Source of the DNA: a virus
Direction: 5' to 3' (one strand)
DNA length: 64,000 nucleotides
Virus genome (UHGV): UHGV-0038492
The translations under genes were made by a program, and so were the position numbers. Below, piece by piece: positions 27,599-51,601 of this stretch; the stretch's first letter is position 1, and every line of letters starts with the position of its first letter. Below the pieces are notes generated by a model. The model was given only the letters and a program-made list of their open reading frames with translations, did no database searches and was not told where the DNA came from.

Positions 27599-28972
27599 TT
27601 ACTCCTCGTCGATTTCAGTGTACCATTTCGCTTTACGAGACAGTATACGGTATTCGACGTTATCGTATTCGAACACCCAGAAGTAGTTATCTGGATCGGC
27701 TTCATCAACGAGTTTCACGACGTCCAGACTGGTCTGATACGGATGGTATTCTTCCGCTGCTATTAGCGCCTGGAAGAACAACGCTAACCACTCGGTGGTG
27801 GATTTCGACATTCGTGCAATGTCTGGGTTTGTTGTTGCAATCAGTGCGTAGTCTGGTAACGTTTCGTGTAAGGTATTCTTACGAGTGTCGTTCTCAGGGC
27901 CACTGATAACCACCATGTTCAGCGATTTATACACGGTCGGTAAATCGGTAACATCCGTCGTCGGTTTGCTTACCGTATTACTATTTCTTTCTGCAACAGA
28001 CTGATCAGACCATTCCCCAAACTTTGTAATGGCTTTGACCCAGAAATCATATGGAAGGATGGGGGAATAGAGAGCCGCCACGTCTTCCTCATTCGGTATA
28101 CCACGGATTTTCCACCCCGGAACCATTGTGAATTTCGTGGTGGTAAAGATCTCAGGGAATACCTTCACTCCAATCGGAACCGTAAAGCTGGAGTTTGCAA
28201 GAATATGTTCACGCAACGCTTGCTTTATTTTCGTTGGGTTTTTTCCTGCACGTCCGTAAATGATAACCGACATTGGAACAACCAGTGTTGACTCGTAGTT
28301 TTCTTGGTCATGCCAGGTGTAGTAGTTAGTCTGGATGGCAGTATACGGGAACCCTGCCATTAACTCGTTGATTTTCTTATGGTGTTCGGTAAGGTTAAAC
28401 CCTTCCATCGCTTTTTCAACGACTGACTTCGTGGCCAAAAACGTGTCGATTGGCTCAATCGGCATTTGCACTTCGATTTCATAACCCGTGTAGTCCTGGT
28501 CGAAGTCTTCATCCGAGAACCAAACTATGATTTGGTTATCTACATCAGTGTCATCTTGTACTTGATCTGCTGTTGCTTCATATTTCCAGCTCACCCAACG
28601 TGGGAACCAGTTACTGTTCGTCTGGATCATCGCACCGGACTGGACACCGGAAATGGTTGATTGGAATTGGCCTAATAATAGGCGCTGGAATTCAAGTTCG
28701 TCATTTCTCAGATTCCCCAAGATGGCTTGCTGGTAAATCCATTGAGAAACGGTTAGAATATGATCAGAAAACTCGGCTGGAACAACAACCGTCTGTTTTT
28801 CTCGTTTAGACGTAAATGTCACCAACTGCACTTGCAGATTGGATTTAGTAAACGTCTGTTTACTCTTCGCGTACGAGAGGGTCAAATCAGACAGCTCACC
28901 TACCGGAGCGGTGACGCCGTCCTGATTGTCAAACAGAGCCGGTATCTGAATAAAACCTTGTAAGTCTAACAT
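27599..28972 (-). CDS. hypothetical protein (about 457 aa)
   Basis: Track ORF 27599-29032 trimmed to the internal ATG at 28970-28972, which has GGAG upstream; the 29032 ATG has no RBS and would overlap the divergent plus gene. Confidence 0.65.
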   Translation of the reverse strand: MLDLQGFIQIPALFDNQDGVTAPVGELSDLTLSYAKSKQTFTKSNLQVQLVTFTSKREKQTVVVPAEFSDHILTVSQWIYQQAILGNLRNDELEFQRLLLGQFQSTISGVQSGAMIQTNSNWFPRWVSWKYEATADQVQDDTDVDNQIIVWFSDEDFDQDYTGYEIEVQMPIEPIDTFLATKSVVEKAMEGFNLTEHHKKINELMAGFPYTAIQTNYYTWHDQENYESTLVVPMSVIIYGRAGKNPTKIKQALREHILANSSFTVPIGVKVFPEIFTTTKFTMVPGWKIRGIPNEEDVAALYSPILPYDFWVKAITKFGEWSDQSVAERNSNTVSKPTTDVTDLPTVYKSLNMVVISGPENDTRKNTLHETLPDYALIATTNPDIARMSKSTTEWLALFFQALIAAEEYHPYQTSLDVVKLVDEADPDNYFWVFEYDNVEYRILSRKAKWYTEIDEE

Positions 28973-28997
28973 AATTAAAAATACTCCGAGGTGAGCA

Positions 28998-29501
28998 ATG
29001 GGTTCATTTCTTAAAGTGCTTCCGTTCTTCATTCAGATGTTGATGGAAGCATTTAAACCAGGAGAAGGAGAAAACGTATCAAGAGCAAACAAGATAATGA
29101 CTTTAATCATCACGGTCTTGTTATCCTACTCGGCTTTCGTCTCCTATGCGTACGTAGTGCAGTTTCACAAGCTCGTTACAGTACAATCTCATGATCAATA
29201 CATGTCGCAATCTTACCAAGAGATGAAGCAAGATCGTGACAAACTGAAAGATGATAATGGTAGACTATACGACAAGCTCTTTATTTGCCTCGGCCAGAAA
29301 CCGCCATATGAAAGCGGGTACAGCTCGGTAAAAGAAGACAACTCTACCAAAGATTTAACACCTAAGAAACCAGAAACTCCTGTTAGCCCAGCTTCAACAC
29401 CAGAACAACGCAGAGAAGCTTCGGCGCGACCTGTTGGTAGTCAAAACGCTAACAGTTTCCGTCAGGAGATCATAAAGACGTTATCCTCACCTAAGGAGTA
29501 A
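28998..29501 (+). CDS. membrane protein with one TM helix and coiled-coil region (167 aa); spanin-like architecture
   Basis: RBS GAGGTGA; hydrophobic segment IMTLIITVLLSYSAFVSYAYVV followed by a charged helical region. Confidence 0.65.
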   Translation: MGSFLKVLPFFIQMLMEAFKPGEGENVSRANKIMTLIITVLLSYSAFVSYAYVVQFHKLVTVQSHDQYMSQSYQEMKQDRDKLKDDNGRLYDKLFICLGQKPPYESGYSSVKEDNSTKDLTPKKPETPVSPASTPEQRREASARPVGSQNANSFRQEIIKTLSSPKE

Positions 29502-29504
29502 CTG

Positions 29505-29960
29505 ATGAAATTGCTGTTATTCATCATGATTTTGTGCGTGGGTTTGGTGAGTAATAGCTATGGAGAACCCGGTAAACGGCCATCCTATACTGCGTTACAA
29601 CCTCCGCCAGCGCCGCCTATCATGCTAAATTGGAAAATTGATAAAGACGCGATGCGGGAATATGTTGCGGATGTGAATACATACGCTTATTACGTTTATC
29701 TCTACACACGAAACTTAAATCAACAAGCAGTCAAACGCGGGTGGAATCCACCGATGTTAGCACCTATCTGCGAACGGTTTGAAATTCCTAAATTACATTC
29801 CGTTCCAGAAAAGATGTTATTAGACGACAAAGCGTTAACGCCACAAGAAATCAGTCGGGATTTATCACGTAAACTGAATTCGTTGTTGTGGAATTATCGC
29901 TCTGACCGGCAAGCTTTATTAGACGCCTACGATCAGTATCTGACAACGTGTTTGAACTGA
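29505..29960 (+). CDS. secreted proline-rich protein (151 aa precursor)
   Basis: Start 4 nt after the preceding stop; signal-peptide-like MKLLLFIMILCVGLVSNSYG; PPPAPP stretch; no canonical lipobox. Confidence 0.65.
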   Translation: MKLLLFIMILCVGLVSNSYGEPGKRPSYTALQPPPAPPIMLNWKIDKDAMREYVADVNTYAYYVYLYTRNLNQQAVKRGWNPPMLAPICERFEIPKLHSVPEKMLLDDKALTPQEISRDLSRKLNSLLWNYRSDRQALLDAYDQYLTTCLN

Positions 29961-29965
29961 CAACG

Positions 29966-30005
29966 CCTCCTGTACCCTTCGGGGTACAGGAGGTATTTTC
30001 TTTTT
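29966..30005 (+). terminator. intrinsic terminator (CCTCCTGTACCC / GGGTACAGGAGG, TTCG loop)
   Basis: Perfect 12-bp stem 29966-29977 / 29982-29993, followed by TATTTTCTTTTT. Confidence 0.85.
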
Positions 30006-30047
30006 AACGTTTAACCCCCTTCTAATGTATAGAGAAAGGAGCTTAAC

Positions 30048-30782
30048 ATGACATACCCGAAAACGATTCAACCCACCTTACCGACGCTGGTAATTGGTGC
30101 TGACGCAGAAACCAAATCACTGCGTCCTGATGCGTATTTGTTAACCACAGGCTTAGTTGCCTTTGATGTACCGACTTTAAAAATGGTAGGGTCGTCGTAT
30201 ATGCGTATTGATCCTAATGACCCTAAAGCAAAAGCTGTGTTCCACGAAGACCCACAGACCGTAGGATGGTGGGAAGGTAAAGGGGAACCTGAATACGCAC
30301 CGTCTCGTGAAGCCTACACGGAAGCATGGGGCGGTACAACACCTATGCCGGAAGCGCTGTGGGCAATGCGTAAGTGGTTAGACGAAATCACCGGTAAGCA
30401 CAATTTTGTTATCACCATGCGTGGGCCGGATTTCGATTCGCCTATTTTCATGAACGCGTTCGCACAATGTGACGTCCCTCCAGGTAAATTCCGTAAGTTC
30501 AGCGCGTTAGACAGTGACCGTACCGCAGAACGTTTAGCGTTGGCGTTTGGTTTTGAACCCGACTTGACCGTTGAGCAAGTTTACTGGACGCGCGGTAAAC
30601 CGGCATTTGAACACCATGCATTGTGGGATGCTGCGAAAGAAGCTTACACCACTGCACGTATTTATCACCTTGCACTGATTACCCGCGAGTACGGGTACGA
30701 ACGTGCTAAAGCCTGTCACGAAGAACTGAAGACCGGTGAGTATATTCCACCTCAGATTCGTGATCAGTTAACCAGGGATTAA
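30048..30782 (+). CDS. DEDDh-type 3-prime-5-prime exonuclease (DnaQ-like fold)
   Basis: Exo I-like VIGADAETKSL, Exo II-like RGPDFDSPIF, Exo III-like HHALWDAAKEAY. Confidence 0.7.
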   Translation: MTYPKTIQPTLPTLVIGADAETKSLRPDAYLLTTGLVAFDVPTLKMVGSSYMRIDPNDPKAKAVFHEDPQTVGWWEGKGEPEYAPSREAYTEAWGGTTPMPEALWAMRKWLDEITGKHNFVITMRGPDFDSPIFMNAFAQCDVPPGKFRKFSALDSDRTAERLALAFGFEPDLTVEQVYWTRGKPAFEHHALWDAAKEAYTTARIYHLALITREYGYERAKACHEELKTGEYIPPQIRDQLTRD

Positions 30783-47313: not shown

Positions 47314-47859
47314 ATGAAACAAATACAGTTAACTGATCACGTTAATGCGTTTAAACACTTTCTGGATAACGCGGGTATAAAACCCGGCGAACAGACAGAC
47401 GCATGGACTGCACGTGTTTACGGAAGTATCGGCAAAGTCTGTGAATCCACGACGACACACGACGGGTTGTTTGTTGCTAAAGCAGTAGGTATTGCCTTGT
47501 GGGATATTGTCGCTCTAGTTTACGTGATGAATAACGGGGATTTACGTCCCCTTGAAAAATCACTGCACCGACTACTAGCCATTAAGAAATGGAAAAATGA
47601 ACATCCTGAGTCAATCGCGGTTACGTTGATGCCAGAAGCGGTACTTGCTATCAAAGCGGTACGAAGTTGTACCGCTCGCGCACAAATGGAGCGGCGTCTA
47701 CATCTCGCGACGCTCTTTTATCAATTGGCCAGAATTGTAAAGATGAACGGCCTAATCTTCGACCGGGTTCTACAGAACGGACGTATAAGTTGGACAGAAG
47801 AACTAAGTAGTTCTCCGTTCTATACAAAACTAAAACTTAAAGACATTTTGAAGGATTAA
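47314..47859 (+). CDS. hypothetical protein (181 aa)
   Basis: Track ORF. Confidence 0.65.
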   Translation: MKQIQLTDHVNAFKHFLDNAGIKPGEQTDAWTARVYGSIGKVCESTTTHDGLFVAKAVGIALWDIVALVYVMNNGDLRPLEKSLHRLLAIKKWKNEHPESIAVTLMPEAVLAIKAVRSCTARAQMERRLHLATLFYQLARIVKMNGLIFDRVLQNGRISWTEELSSSPFYTKLKLKDILKD

Positions 47860-47860
47860 C

Positions 47861-48169
47861 ATGGAAAACTATTCGGGTTGGGCAATTTCGCAGTGCATTG
47901 GCTATTCTTTACGTTCTTTAGTGCGTACACTTTATAACAAAAACTCGGGTGAAAGCATTTCACCACAGTTACTGGGCAAATTGGAAGTCGAAGTTAACCA
48001 CAAATTAAAACAGTTACTCGACAGCCACGTAAGAACATTGCGTTGGGAGTTTTTGTTACGTGGTAAAAAGCCGTCAATTACCGTTGTAGCAGAAGGCAGT
48101 GAAATCGTTCTCCAATCCAACGCAGACCTGTTTGAAATTTTAACTGAACTAGAAAAGGACAAAATCTGA
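47861..48169 (+). CDS. hypothetical protein (102 aa)
   Basis: Track ORF. Confidence 0.6.
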
Positions 48170-49209
48170 TGAAACAGTATTTAGCATTAATGCAAGACAT
48201 TCTGGATAACGGTGTTGTCAAGAAAGATCGTACAGGCGTAGGGACACTTTCTGTGTTTGGTCGTCAACTACGTTTTGACCTGAAAGAAGGTTTCCCATTA
48301 GTTACTACGAAAAAGGTTCACCTGAAAAGTATCATTCACGAACTACTGTGGTTCTTAGACGGTGACACTAATGTGAAGTACCTGCAAGAGAACGGGGTAA
48401 AAATCTGGAACGAATGGGCGAATGAAGAAGGGGAATTAGGTCCTGTCTACGGACAACAGTGGCGGGAATGGATGGACACCAAAATGCTTTATCTTTGGGA
48501 CGAGCGTAGTAAAGACGTGTTGAGAAAGCGGGGATATCACTACATTGGGACTATTGCAGAGGACAACCCTGAAGAAAGTATCGTTATTTATAGCAAATCT
48601 CACGACCAGATCAGCAAAGTCATCCAACAACTTCGTGAAGATCCTGACTCCCGCCGTATTATTGTTAGTTCCTGGAACGTAAGTGATCTGGACGATATGG
48701 CACTTAACCCGTGTCACAACTACTTCCAATTCTACACAACGGAAATGTCACTACTTGAGAGACTGGAATGGTACGAAGTAAACGAACCGGAAAAAATTGC
48801 GAGCGCACCGCTTATTAAACACGAAGATATTGATGATGAAGAACGACTTCATGTAACTTTAGATCGTGAAGGTATTCCGCGTCGTAAACTTTCGTGTTTC
48901 TTCCTGATGCGATCAAATGACGTGTTCTTAGGTTTACCGTTCAACATCGCTTCGTACGCGTTGTTAACACACATCGTTGCTCAACAACTGAACATGGTTC
49001 CAGACGAACTTGTTTACAGTGGTGTAGATGTCCATCTGTACTCTAACCATCTGGAGCAAGCAAAACTTCAGCTTACACGCGAACCTTACCCGTTACCTAA
49101 ACTCGTTATCAAACGTAAACCTGATTCTATCTTCGAATACAAATACGAAGACTTCGAATTAGTCGGCTATCAAGCTCATCCACATATTGCGGCCCCTGTC
49201 GCGGTTTAA
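48169..49209 (+). CDS. thyA: thymidylate synthase (ThyA family) with two insertions; could alternatively be a dUMP hydroxymethylase
   Basis: Near-identical to bacterial ThyA in the conserved blocks: [51 protein letters not shown], catalytic [29 protein letters not shown]-terminal PVAV; about 35-aa and 45-aa insertions relative to E. coli ThyA (recalled from memory). Confidence 0.9.
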
Positions 49210-49239
49210 ATTACCACCTAATTAAAAGGGTATGATAAA

Positions 49240-49686
49240 ATGTCTAAAACTCATGTTAACTATAACATCGTAGTAGAAGAATTATCAAAAGGTTTAACCG
49301 ATCTGGATTCTAAAGATAACCCGTTTACCGAACGTTATGGTCCCAATGCTTTATCTGAATTTCGTACTATCCGCTACGGTACAGGCAGACAGATGGGGCT
49401 TACAGACTTTGCTGTTGAATTAGCTAAGAACCATAAAGGGAAAGTGTTGTTCGTTAACCCAAAAGGGTTCTTAGAAGACGATGTGCTATTCCGTTTGGGT
49501 CTCGAAGAATTACCGGAGAATATCACACAAATCAGCGGTTACCAAATGGGTACAGAAAAAGAAAAATACAGCCTTGTCATTGTAGACGACGCTGGGGTTT
49601 TCTTTAGCATGTTCCGTTACATGAAGTTCTTCCGCTTACTTGCAAACTCAGTAACTAAAGACGTTGTAATCCATTTAATGGGTTAA
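49240..49686 (+). CDS. hypothetical protein (148 aa)
   Basis: Track ORF. Confidence 0.6.
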   Translation: MSKTHVNYNIVVEELSKGLTDLDSKDNPFTERYGPNALSEFRTIRYGTGRQMGLTDFAVELAKNHKGKVLFVNPKGFLEDDVLFRLGLEELPENITQISGYQMGTEKEKYSLVIVDDAGVFFSMFRYMKFFRLLANSVTKDVVIHLMG

Positions 49687-49717
49687 TTAGAACCTATCAC
49701 ATTCGAGTGGAAATCTA

Positions 49718-49942
49718 ATGAAGAAGCCACGCTTTCACAGCCTGAGATACTTTACAGGTACTCTATATTTTATTGGCTACAACCGTGTACGTAAGGGTCC
49801 TGGTAAATCGAAGATGCGCATCGTGCGATATAAAGAAACGCCGCCAGGTCTAGCACCGATGGCGAAACTTCTGTCGCCGTTCGCTAACCTTAATATCAAA
49901 ACTGTTAACCCCTTTGTAAGAAATTTGGAAACTAAAAAATGA
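49718..49942 (+). CDS. small basic ORF (74 aa)
   Basis: Track ORF; weak RBS; real-gene status uncertain. Confidence 0.3.
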   Translation: MKKPRFHSLRYFTGTLYFIGYNRVRKGPGKSKMRIVRYKETPPGLAPMAKLLSPFANLNIKTVNPFVRNLETKK

Positions 49943-50082
49943 CTGAAGAAGTTAAAGTAGAAACCGTTAAAGAAACTGACGAATTTGCAATCCCTGGCTT
50001 AGACCCGGAAGCGACCGTAGAGAAGGGTGCTGACCCAACTACGGAAGACGATAACTGCTCAGGCGGGGCTTGCAAAATTTAA
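49939..50082 (+). CDS. small acidic ORF (47 aa, ends ...DDNCSGGACKI)
   Basis: ATG overlaps the preceding stop (ATGA); followed by a terminator hairpin; too short for the track. Confidence 0.3.
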   Translation: MTEEVKVETVKETDEFAIPGLDPEATVEKGADPTTEDDNCSGGACKI

Positions 50083-50090
50083 CAGTTCAC

Positions 50091-50130
50091 GGGGTGCTTA
50101 TGTAGCACCCCTAATCATTATTCTTTTTTT
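50091..50130 (+). terminator. hairpin terminator (GGGGTGCT / AGCACCCC)
   Basis: 8-bp stem 50091-50098 / 50104-50111; T-run TTCTTTTTTTG about 10 nt downstream. Confidence 0.6.
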
Positions 50131-50152
50131 GTTAATCTAATGGAGTTTTAGA

Positions 50153-50983
50153 ATGGGCGAACGTTTTGACATCAACGCTATTTACAACATCGTAGTTAAT
50201 CCTGGTCAACACCTGGAAGAAGTTAACGCACAACTGCGTGCTCTGAATGAGAAGGCAATACAGTTCGACGCCATTTACACAATCGGTGTAAACCCTGGTA
50301 CCAGTCGTATTCGCGTGGAAGGTAAACGACACACCGGCACTCAAGAACTGGACATCGAAACGATTGAAGCACCGATTAAACTTACCGACGCCGTTTATAA
50401 CGGTACGGTAATGCACACCGTGTCGGTTCCGGTCTATTCTATTGCGAACTGTGCAGAACATGTTAAAGGCTGGTCTAAAGAACGCGGCATCCTCGATAAC
50501 GGTAAACTGGAAACTCAAATCACGAAATTCTTTGAAGAGTTTGGTGAAATCGCAACAGGTATCAGTAAAAACAAACCTGAACTGATCATGGATGGCATCG
50601 GTGATGCGTTAGTGGTTTTAGTGAACATCCTGGAACTGGGTAAAGACAAACTGTCTGGTGAAATGACAACCGCTGAAATCATCGAGCACGGTTTACAATT
50701 GCAGGTAGATGATGTCGCTGACGTTGAAGAACGTTTTGATGACAACGGGTATCCGCACCATTTGTATCTCCACGCTACCGAAATCTTCGCTACCGCATTT
50801 ATTCGCTCCGATGCTGGGTTCGATCAACTTAACTGGGCTTTGTACCGCCTTGCGAAACTGGCTCTCTACTATCGTCTTGACATTCGTCATTGTTTCTCTC
50901 TAGCCTGGCACGAAATCAAAGACCGTAAAGGCTATCTGAACGCTGACGGTATCTTTGTAAAAGAAGCAGATTTGGCGAAATAA
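50153..50983 (+). CDS. MazG-like nucleoside triphosphate pyrophosphohydrolase with N-terminal extension (276 aa)
   Basis: ITKFFEEFGEIATGI ... DGIGDALVVLVNILE ... AWHEIKDRKG resemble the MazG EExxE / D-loop helices. Confidence 0.7.
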   Translation: MGERFDINAIYNIVVNPGQHLEEVNAQLRALNEKAIQFDAIYTIGVNPGTSRIRVEGKRHTGTQELDIETIEAPIKLTDAVYNGTVMHTVSVPVYSIANCAEHVKGWSKERGILDNGKLETQITKFFEEFGEIATGISKNKPELIMDGIGDALVVLVNILELGKDKLSGEMTTAEIIEHGLQLQVDDVADVEERFDDNGYPHHLYLHATEIFATAFIRSDAGFDQLNWALYRLAKLALYYRLDIRHCFSLAWHEIKDRKGYLNADGIFVKEADLAK

Positions 50984-50991
50984 ATAAAAGT

Positions 50992-51028
50992 ACCTACCTC
51001 CGAAAGGAGGTAGGTTAACTTTCTTTTT
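50992..51028. terminator. bidirectional terminator (ACCTACCTCC / GGAGGTAGGT, GAAA loop)
   Basis: 10-bp stem 50992-51001 / 51006-51015, followed by TAACTTTCTTTTTTTTCTTTTTTT; U-rich on the other strand as well; between convergent gene ends 50983 (+) and 51038 (-). Confidence 0.85.
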
Positions 51029-51037
51029 TTTCTTTTT

Positions 51038-51601
51038 TTAGGCGTCTGGAACGATTCCAGAAGAGATATACGTCAAACCGTCAAGTTCGGTAACTTTAAT
51101 CAGTTTCGAAATATCCTTACCGTCAGACGGCAGTTCAGTTAAGTACACTTCCAACTGACCTGTCCAAGCCAAAGATCTCCCGTTCATGATAATGATGGTT
51201 TTATCTCTGCTGTCTGGTGCAGCCGTTGGGTTCTCAACTTCGTCATCCGTAATCTGCAAGTTATACTTCGTACGGAACAGTTCCAATACTTCAGAAACGG
51301 TAGTAGCGTTCACACCTGCGACAGAGACAACGAAATCACCCAACAGATGTTCCAAATCCAACCGACGATAAATAACGTCAATTTTACCAAACGTTTTTTG
51401 TTCAATAATTCCCTGGACGCTGAGTTGAGTATTTAATCGTGTAAATTGAGTTTCTGGTGTTTCTACTGCGGGGATATGTGCCGGTGTGCCGAAATTCAAT
51501 TTATCGATTGTAATACCTTTCTCTACCAAACCTGGATTCTTTTTTACTAATAACTCATAAACCAGTTGTTTTCCTGATTTACCTAATAGCGTATTAGCCA
51601 T
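51038..51601 (-). CDS. hypothetical virion-module protein (187 aa)
   Basis: Track ORF; last gene of the minus-strand operon with the 2377-aa and 733-aa genes. Confidence 0.7.
   Translation of the reverse strand: MANTLLGKSGKQLVYELLVKKNPGLVEKGITIDKLNFGTPAHIPAVETPETQFTRLNTQLSVQGIIEQKTFGKIDVIYRRLDLEHLLGDFVVSVAGVNATTVSEVLELFRTKYNLQITDDEVENPTAAPDSRDKTIIIMNGRSLAWTGQLEVYLTELPSDGKDISKLIKVTELDGLTYISSGIVPDA

Follow-up and report, generated by a model that had tools for sequence, protein, structure and literature searches.

A MazG-clan protein with a clade-specific N-terminal domain encoded near thymidylate synthase in a Seoul-like jumbo phage

The MazG-like gene and its catalytic module

In the 64,000-nucleotide stretch of the virus genome UHGV-0038492 that was analyzed here (the window), the gene at positions 50153-50983 encodes a protein of 276 amino acids (aa) that is a member of a MazG-clan phage family, annotated already and biochemically uncharacterized. 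A preliminary description of this DNA had identified the product as a MazG-like nucleoside triphosphate (NTP) pyrophosphohydrolase with an additional N-terminal domain. The family, profile, and model evidence bears out this assignment, and the bounds of the gene, its ATG start, and the length of its product were confirmed from the list of open reading frames (ORFs). The encoded protein, which is predicted to be soluble, consists of (i) an N-terminal domain, (ii) the first part of the catalytic core, which carries both metal-binding motifs, (iii) a variable helical insert, and (iv) a conserved C-terminal part (Table 1).

Table 1. Features of the MazG-like gene and of its close surroundings in the window (aa, amino acids; AF2, AlphaFold2; A1 and A2, alignments)
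Feature	Position	Strand	Description and basis
Thymidylate synthase ThyA	48169..49209	+	Pfam E=1.5e-110; NCBIfam equivalog cut-offs passed
47-aa ORF	49939..50082	+	Ends DDNCSGGACKI; directly 5' of the MazG-like gene
Ribosome-binding site GGAG	50142..50145	+	7 nt 5' of the ATG; sequence reading
MazG-like gene	50153..50983	+	Complete ORF; ATG at 50153, stop ends at 50983; 276 aa
N-terminal domain (aa 1-96)	50153..50440	+	AF2 models of the full-length protein and of residues 1-98 alone
Repeat copy 1, NAIYNIVVNPG (aa 8-18)	50172..50206	+	Strand beta1 and NPG turn
Repeat copy 2, DAIYTIGVNPG (aa 39-49)	50265..50299	+	Strand beta2 and NPG turn; in frame, 93 nt 3' of copy 1
Catalytic core, first part (aa 97-165)	50441..50647	+	Helices 97-110, 119-138, 142-162; A1, A2, profile alignment to E. 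coli MazG and SSO3215
First metal-binding motif, EEFGE (EExxE; E128, E129, E132)	50534..50548	+	Invariant in A1; E129 and E132 invariant in the 72 sequences of A2
Second metal-binding motif, DGIGD (D147, D151)	50591..50605	+	DxxxD variant of the canonical E-E-x-x-D
Variable helical insert (aa 166-235)	50648..50857	+	Length and sequence differ in every homologue (A1 columns 400-500)
Conserved C-terminal part (aa 236-276)	50858..50980	+	Helix 244-255, hairpin 260-270; motif AWxEIKDRKGxLxxxGxFVKE; invariant R258, G260
Terminator-like hairpin	50992..51015		Bidirectional, 10-bp stem; terminator scan; common to the MazG-like gene and the convergent virion gene 51038..51601 (-)

Over nearly its whole length (residues 3-274 on profile positions 3-290 of 291), the protein matches phrog_7855, which is annotated as "mazG nucleotide pyrophosphohydrolase" (E=6.7e-72). 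Its orthologues in phage SPN3US (YP_009153529, ACQ60_gp031) and in the Erwinia, Proteus, and Escherichia phages, grouped in PHROG 7855, have the same two domains and are 42-44% identical to it, over the full length in the case of the SPN3US and Erwinia jumbo-phage proteins. Among 1.84 billion cluster representatives, which were searched exhaustively, 2062 relatives were found; almost all of these have a single domain, are 160-180 aa long, and can be aligned to residues ~100-275. For the counts of conservation and Pfam matches, we used 72 diverse relatives (alignment A2). PF03819 is matched by 45 of these 72 sequences at E<=0.01 (best 4.5e-10), and dUTPase_2 (PF08761) by none; the latter was also not listed for the window protein itself at E<=1. 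The search of PDB with the single sequence returned only noise (1izm, E=0.04). The family profile retrieved the structures of E. coli MazG (3crc, E=4.5e-5), SSO3215 (1vmg), and YpjD (2gta), with E-values ranging up to 1e-3.

In the profile alignment, EEFGE (residues 128-132) falls on the EExxE motif of the MazG structures and D147/D151 on their E-E-x-x-D motif, with D147 aligned to the first E of EELAD in 1vmg and D151 to its D. The residues W107, Q122, K125, E129, E132, G150, D151, R258, and G260 are invariant in the 72-sequence alignment, D147 is conserved in at least 90% of the sequences, and K256 and K270 are likewise nearly invariant. Since both acidic motifs are placed on the MazG motifs and the ligands are conserved, the catalytic apparatus is predicted to be intact, with DxxxD as its second motif. 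In the AlphaFold2 model of the full-length protein (predicted local distance difference test, pLDDT, 89.9; predicted template modelling score, pTM, 0.86), the core is all-helical, residues 97-255 being helical and followed by a small hairpin at 260-270, and the lowest pLDDT (63-83) is found in the insert. The structure 1vmg superimposes on the model with 1.7 A over 70 columns. The Foldseek comparison of the model with PDB was uninformative; as judged from the model, dimeric dUTPases appear to be the closest solved folds. The claim that MazG-type helices are present stands on the match to phrog_7855, the profile matches to MazG structures, and a sub-threshold match to PF03819. Their assignment to the C-terminal half was too narrow, as the module, from residue 97 to residue 276, makes up about two thirds of the protein.

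Comparison with characterized and predicted MazG-clan proteins revealed several levels of similarity. The single-domain MazG-like pyrophosphatases of phages (PHROGs 715, 1992, and 1994; ~160-180 aa), exemplified by Pbunavirus NH-4 gp51 and by proteins of Kayvirus and Streptococcus Javan phages, share the EExxE, D..GD, and AWxEIKDRKG motifs and a variable center with the window protein; one record is named "NTP-PPase u3". They differ from it in the absence of the N-terminal domain and show 26-33% identity, and many of them are mislabelled "DNA binding protein". With 964 phage records and ~2000 clusters at 50% identity, this family is very common in phages and entirely uncharacterized. E. coli MazG (3crc/3cra) and the minimal MazG proteins (SSO3215, 1vmg; YpjD, 2gta) are homologous to the window protein at the profile level across the two acidic motifs. 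E. coli MazG is a tandem of two MazG domains; in the minimal proteins, neither the insert nor the C-terminal helix-hairpin with AWxEIKDRKG is present. The dimeric all-alpha dUTPases (phiDI Dut, 5myd; the C. jejuni enzyme, 1w2y; the L. major enzyme, 2yay) have in common with it the overall fold and the layout of conserved flanks around a variable center, which has been described for the dimeric Duts of staphylococcal phages (Donderis et al., PMC5608427).

Variability was measured in a sample of 120 listed near-identical variants (95-100% identity). The fraction of variable sites is 13% in the first catalytic block, 20% in the last block, 33% in the insert, and 38% in the N-terminal domain; thus, the catalytic core is under the strongest purifying selection. 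The metal ligands are fixed in these variants except for a singleton at D147, and another singleton occurs at K256. Two residues, S51 and R194 (codons at 50303-50305 and 50732-50734), are private to the window protein, 119 of the 120 listed proteins having N51 and H194.

The N-terminal domain and its internal repeat

The N-terminal domain had been described as about 110 residues long; two AlphaFold2 models reduce it to ~96 residues. It comprises strand beta1 (4-14), helix alpha1 (17-30), and strands beta2 (38-46), beta3 (53-59), beta4 (68-73), and beta5 (82-93), and residues 1-98 modelled alone (pLDDT 83) adopt the same fold as in the full-length model. According to these models, the domain would be a single compact beta-alpha-beta4 unit of cystatin-like topology with no internal symmetry, packed onto the catalytic domain. 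Its matches to cystatins are weak only, Pfam contains nothing for it, and a homologous family was not detected. By tblastn against phages, the domain was found in 42 phage records, in one copy each and always within the MazG-like gene, and all these records are Seoul-like or Erwinia/Proteus/Escherichia jumbo phages. Rather than a second enzyme, the domain probably represents a module with a structural or regulatory function or one that binds a partner.

The same catalytic domain carries other, longer N-terminal regions in the jumbo-phage relatives P0127, P0129, and P0130, which have a common "NPGRYTKESL..A...N" motif and are not matched by Pfam. As these extensions differ from the domain described here, fusions of the catalytic module with two or more unrelated N-terminal domains have occurred. 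The Pfam scan of the longer relatives with N- or C-terminal extensions revealed no annotated partner domain, the only exception being one DUF3310.

The preliminary description had also noted a near-duplicated segment in the N-terminal part. The similarity itself is significant at both the protein and the DNA level. The two copies (Table 1) share 8 of 11 residues and reach a BLOSUM62 local score of 40, compared with 16.6 +/- 3.5 in shuffled sequences, none of 5000 of which attained this score. In the DNA, 27 of 35 nucleotides are identical at a spacing of 93 nt, making it the longest direct repeat of the gene; codon-shuffled controls had 21.6 +/- 0.95 identical positions with a maximum of 25, and 0 of 300 reached 27. 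What did not hold is the notion of a duplicated segment beyond these 11 residues: the flanks that had been paired, QHLEEVNAQ (helix) and TSRIRVEG (beta-strand), do not align, and there is no duplication of a domain.

An origin of the whole domain by tandem duplication of a ~30-residue unit, of which the repeat would be the trace, is very unlikely in our estimation. The significance of the repeat, its in-frame position with copies 31 codons apart, and a faint Y-x-[VL]-x-V-N pattern in both strands of the SPN3US-type proteins would agree with such an origin. However, the copies precede different structures in the model, copy 1 being followed by a helix and copy 2 by a hairpin, the modelled domain is one unit without internal symmetry, and internal similarity was insignificant in all eight homologues with the same domain that were examined, SPN3US included (P 0.14-0.91). 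Because unlike structures follow the copies and the repeat is absent from the eight homologues, it is not an ancestral domain duplication; it is a lineage-specific local similarity of beta1 and beta2, produced by short-patch conversion or by convergence on a strand-turn motif, and has no deep meaning. Both copies are retained in all 120 listed variants. The SPN3US-type proteins differ from the window protein not only in lacking the 11-residue repeat; their central insert is unrelated in sequence, and the C-terminal tail of the SPN3US protein is longer.

Predicted role in the deoxynucleotide pool

The phage from which the window derives is a Seoul-like (SPN3US-related, nucleus-forming) jumbo phage, and the window is ~96% identical to the 221,873-bp circular "plasmid" NZ_CP173450.1 (E. 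coli 98232). At 173 of 264 positions, the thymidylate synthase of the window has the same residue as E. coli ThyA, and the PCH, RSxD, and FNIASY motifs are all present. NZ_CP173450.1 encodes thyA, DHFR, and a 5'-nucleotidase of the NT5C type, and its annotation contains no gene for dUTPase, ribonucleotide reductase (RNR), dCMP/dCTP deaminase, hydroxymethylase, or a PurZ-like protein. The MazG-like gene had been placed beside the thymidylate synthase gene; it does belong to the same rightward cluster, yet two to three small ORFs lie between the end of thyA at 49209 and its start. Single-domain relatives are encoded in the replication modules of Pbunavirus NH-4 and of an S. pseudintermedius siphovirus; in the latter, the relative occupies a slot similar to that of Dut in S. 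aureus phages.

With the gene located in one cluster with thymidylate synthase, the shaping of the nucleotide pool that had been proposed for its product is the most reasonable function. In particular, we give about an even chance to the reading that it is a pyrophosphohydrolase of the deoxynucleoside triphosphate (dNTP) pool, most likely converting dUTP or dCTP to the monophosphate for ThyA, and equipped with a clade-specific N-terminal domain. According to the proposed mechanism, E128, E129, and E132 together with D147 and D151, located on two helices, would hold Mg2+, and the basic residues K125, K256, R258, and K270 would hold the triphosphate. The (deoxy)nucleoside triphosphate would then be cut between the alpha and beta phosphates to yield the monophosphate and pyrophosphate. 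If its substrate is dUTP, possibly together with dCTP or further pyrimidine dNTPs, the enzyme would provide the ThyA/DHFR pathway of the phage with dUMP and prevent the incorporation of uracil into the phage DNA. This role of the enzyme is most plausibly suggested by its context: ThyA, DHFR, no dut or RNR gene found, and the replication modules of the relatives. In phages that synthesize dTMP themselves and have neither dut nor RNR, this enzyme family looks like the sole candidate for a dUTPase.

Several observations weigh against this reading, some of them against membership and activity and others against the substrate. The window protein matches PF03819 over residues 120-168 with 19.5 bits (E=0.0012), short of the gathering score of 22, and no NCBIfam model is matched by it. 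The second acidic motif is DxxxD and not ExxD. The literature on SPN3US with MazG or pyrophosphohydrolase reports no activity or substrate for the protein or its close relatives. The alignment of the family with the dimeric Dut of phiNM1 by hhalign was null (probability 0.4%). Dimeric Duts hold the deoxyribose between a His and a Phe that follow the second acidic motif, and this His-Phe pair is selective for uracil (PMC5608427); by motif register, it corresponds to the conserved V154-V155 of the MazG-like protein (D151+3 and +4), and the K-x3-N-x2-R helix of the dimeric Duts corresponds to K256-D-R258. The pattern of motif V differs as well. Because these specificity features of canonical dimeric dUTPases are absent, specificity for dUTP is a contextual guess. 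The absence of dut is based on the annotation of the related genome NZ_CP173450.1 and on tblastn with an E. coli Dut query, which found none, as did a regular expression for the motif of trimeric Dut. Finally, a phage with access to the Dut of its host may not need a dUTPase of its own.

The nearest rival to dUTP/dCTP hydrolysis, and one that overlaps it, is broad house-cleaning: the enzyme would degrade non-canonical or damaged dNTPs (such as dITP, 8-oxo-dGTP, 5-OH-dCTP, and dUTP) with no preferred canonical substrate and thereby protect the 220-kb genome while it is replicated. We regard this as rather unlikely, the linkage to ThyA and the absence of a phage dut favoring a role in the pyrimidine pathway; however, membership in the MazG clan and the location of relatives in replication modules would suit it, and MazG-type enzymes (Mtb MazG, DR2231, and the dimeric Duts of phages) are often promiscuous (PMC5122711, PMC5608427). 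In addition, Val-Val in place of His-Phe suggests a roomy sugar/base pocket, similar to the argument made from the His-to-Ala replacement in phiDI Dut (PMC5608427). More improbable is the removal of alarmones, which had been proposed as well: the protein would be an alarmone hydrolase and anti-abortive-infection factor that degrades (p)ppGpp, blocks toxin activation by the stringent response, and perhaps aids persistent coexistence with the host. The MazG-like protein Atd1 of Pectobacterium phage PcCB7V hydrolyzes ppGpp and protects from TIR-STING toxicity (bioRxiv 10.1101/2022.06.09.495361). By analogy, the window protein may likewise be a phage-encoded MazG-clan enzyme that manipulates host nucleotides, as proposed for Atd1, and it comes from Seoul-like jumbo phages persisting in bacterial isolates (bioRxiv 10.1101/2024.12.31.630880). 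Against this, the cyanophage MazG does not hydrolyze magic-spot nucleotides (PMC6850273), the PADLOC search gave no match for the window protein, and its closest folds are dUTPases. Moreover, Atd1 was found next to anti-defense genes, whereas the MazG-like gene sits with thyA in a nucleotide and replication context and not among recognized anti-defense genes.

All-alpha NTP pyrophosphatases are also known from phages with modified DNA, as exemplified by gp56 of T4. The exclusion of a canonical dNTP had been proposed for the window gene. A corresponding role, in which one canonical dNTP (such as dTTP or dCTP) is destroyed and a modified nucleotide is incorporated, has a further precedent in DatZ/MazZ of S-2L (PMC8342488 for the MazG-like enzyme of this phage), as well as some appeal from the nearby gene of the thymidylate synthase family. 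Such base exclusion is highly improbable because the latter is a bona fide, canonical ThyA by equivalog cut-offs, identity, and motifs and because DHFR is encoded in the 96%-identical genome; hydroxymethylase, PurZ-like, and dCTP/dCMP deaminase genes are not annotated there. The dTTPase Dtt of PhiR1-37 was considered as a family precedent and rejected, as the paper on its dU-containing DNA annotates it as a non-canonical purine NTP pyrophosphatase and nowhere terms it MazG-like. Least probable of all is a non-catalytic protein, either a DNA-binding regulator ("ArpR / DNA binding protein") or a pseudo-enzyme. The label "DNA binding protein" on many single-domain relatives and a probable dead paralogue three genes upstream point in this direction; however, the labels have been inherited from other annotations and are not backed by any domain, the matches include no DNA-binding fold, and the metal-binding acids and the basic residues are invariant in the 72 sequences and the 120 listed variants, except for the singletons at D147 and K256.

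Genomic setting and neighboring genes

Among isolated phages, the closest are SPN3US (Seoulvirus) and the Erwinia jumbo phages. The genes nearby in the window encode a fragment of the RNA polymerase beta-subunit, a UvsX-like recombinase, virion proteins, and a 2377-aa SLT-domain protein. The gene order thyA - small ORFs - MazG - convergent virion genes is kept in SPN3US and in pEa_SNUABM_9, and the SPN3US-type MazG-like genes are similarly located after thyA and a gene for a CxxGACKI peptide and before convergent virion genes. In the megablast search of the region against the phage collection, no match was obtained, and thus no isolated phage at ~85% identity or more. Proteins 95-100% identical to the window protein are encoded on ~222-226 kb contigs in many Salmonella, E. 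coli, and Shigella assemblies, and the 3.1 kb around the gene (window 48000-51100), used as query, match a 222-kb "plasmid" of Enterobacter ludwigii with 92% identity; the phage is recorded as the "plasmids" NZ_CP173450.1 and NZ_CP134650.1. "Persistent" virulent Seoul-like jumbo phages that encode chimallin have been described (bioRxiv 10.1101/2024.12.31.630880), and the window fits these phages. Hundreds of Salmonella, E. coli, and Shigella assemblies list this product as a "hypothetical protein", for which the name MazG-clan NTP pyrophosphohydrolase, from a persistent Seoul-like jumbo phage, can be used.

The most interesting of the nearby features is the 47-aa ORF directly upstream of the MazG-like gene, which carries a copy of the redox tail of NrdA: the redox-active C-terminal tail of E. 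coli NrdA ends in DDGCESGACKI (checked in NC_000913.3). Homologues ending in CTGGACKI or CPSGACKI occupy the same position in SPN3US and pEa_SNUABM_9; in total, 56 phage records contain homologues, all from the same jumbo-phage clade, so that this ORF is a syntenic partner of the MazG-like gene. The PHROGs matched by it have no known function. From the similarity of the tails, the 47-aa protein may be a trans-acting NrdA-tail mimic or decoy directed at thioredoxin/glutaredoxin or at the host RNR. It is a doubtful idea that the N-terminal domain couples the pyrophosphohydrolase to a phage takeover of host deoxynucleotide synthesis, the enzyme forming an undescribed RNR-directed module with the 47-aa protein and ThyA. 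In such a module, the enzyme would be tuned to a regulatory nucleotide, clearing, for example, the dATP/dTTP feedback on host RNR, and the N-terminal domain would recruit it to a host or phage partner, in the setting of nucleus-forming jumbo phages that have no RNR of their own. The clade-restricted domain and the candidate NrdA-tail mimic are leads to the management of host dNTP supply by nucleus-forming phages.

Several other observations concern the surroundings of thyA. Compared with E. coli ThyA, the phage enzyme has insertions of ~30 aa after W101 and of ~46 aa after Y/T157. The region 48169..49689 that includes thyA is just 86% identical to NZ_CP173450.1, its flanks being 96-98% identical, and NZ_CP173450.1 has an additional 321-bp ORF immediately 5' of thyA; this region looks like a local exchange hotspot. 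The 148-aa ORF 49240..49686 (+), which lies between thyA and the MazG-like gene, belongs to PHROG 2586 (unknown function), and the Walker-like strings YGTGRQMG and LVIVDDAG were noticed in it by eye. Upstream of thyA, the adjacent ORFs 47314..47859 and 47861..48169 (+) are in different frames; the first corresponds to the N-terminal and the second to the C-terminal part of PHROG 10269. In SPN3US, this PHROG is a single gene of 289 aa (gp038); the same split as in the window is annotated in NZ_CP173450.1. The ORF 47314..47859 aligns weakly and in register with the MazG helices 95-153, all acidic metal ligands being replaced, and phrog_10269 also matches the MazG-like protein (E=4.8e-6). Judged from these alignments, the split ORF by thyA is probably a catalytically dead MazG-like paralogue.

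Outside this locus, NZ_CP173450.1 encodes two adjacent radical SAM proteins (28603..30724), as well as a DNA adenine methylase and three GNAT acetyltransferases; functions in DNA or protein modification are possible for these genes. The minus-strand ORF 50132..50518 (128 aa), which overlaps the start of the MazG-like gene, was rejected as non-coding because the overlapping plus-strand protein is conserved across many phages. Between the 47-aa ORF and the start of the MazG-like gene, a hairpin, GGGGTGCT-TATGT-AGCACCCC, is located at 50093..50130 with a T-run some bases 3' of it. The terminator scan did not call this hairpin; it may attenuate read-through into the MazG-like gene.

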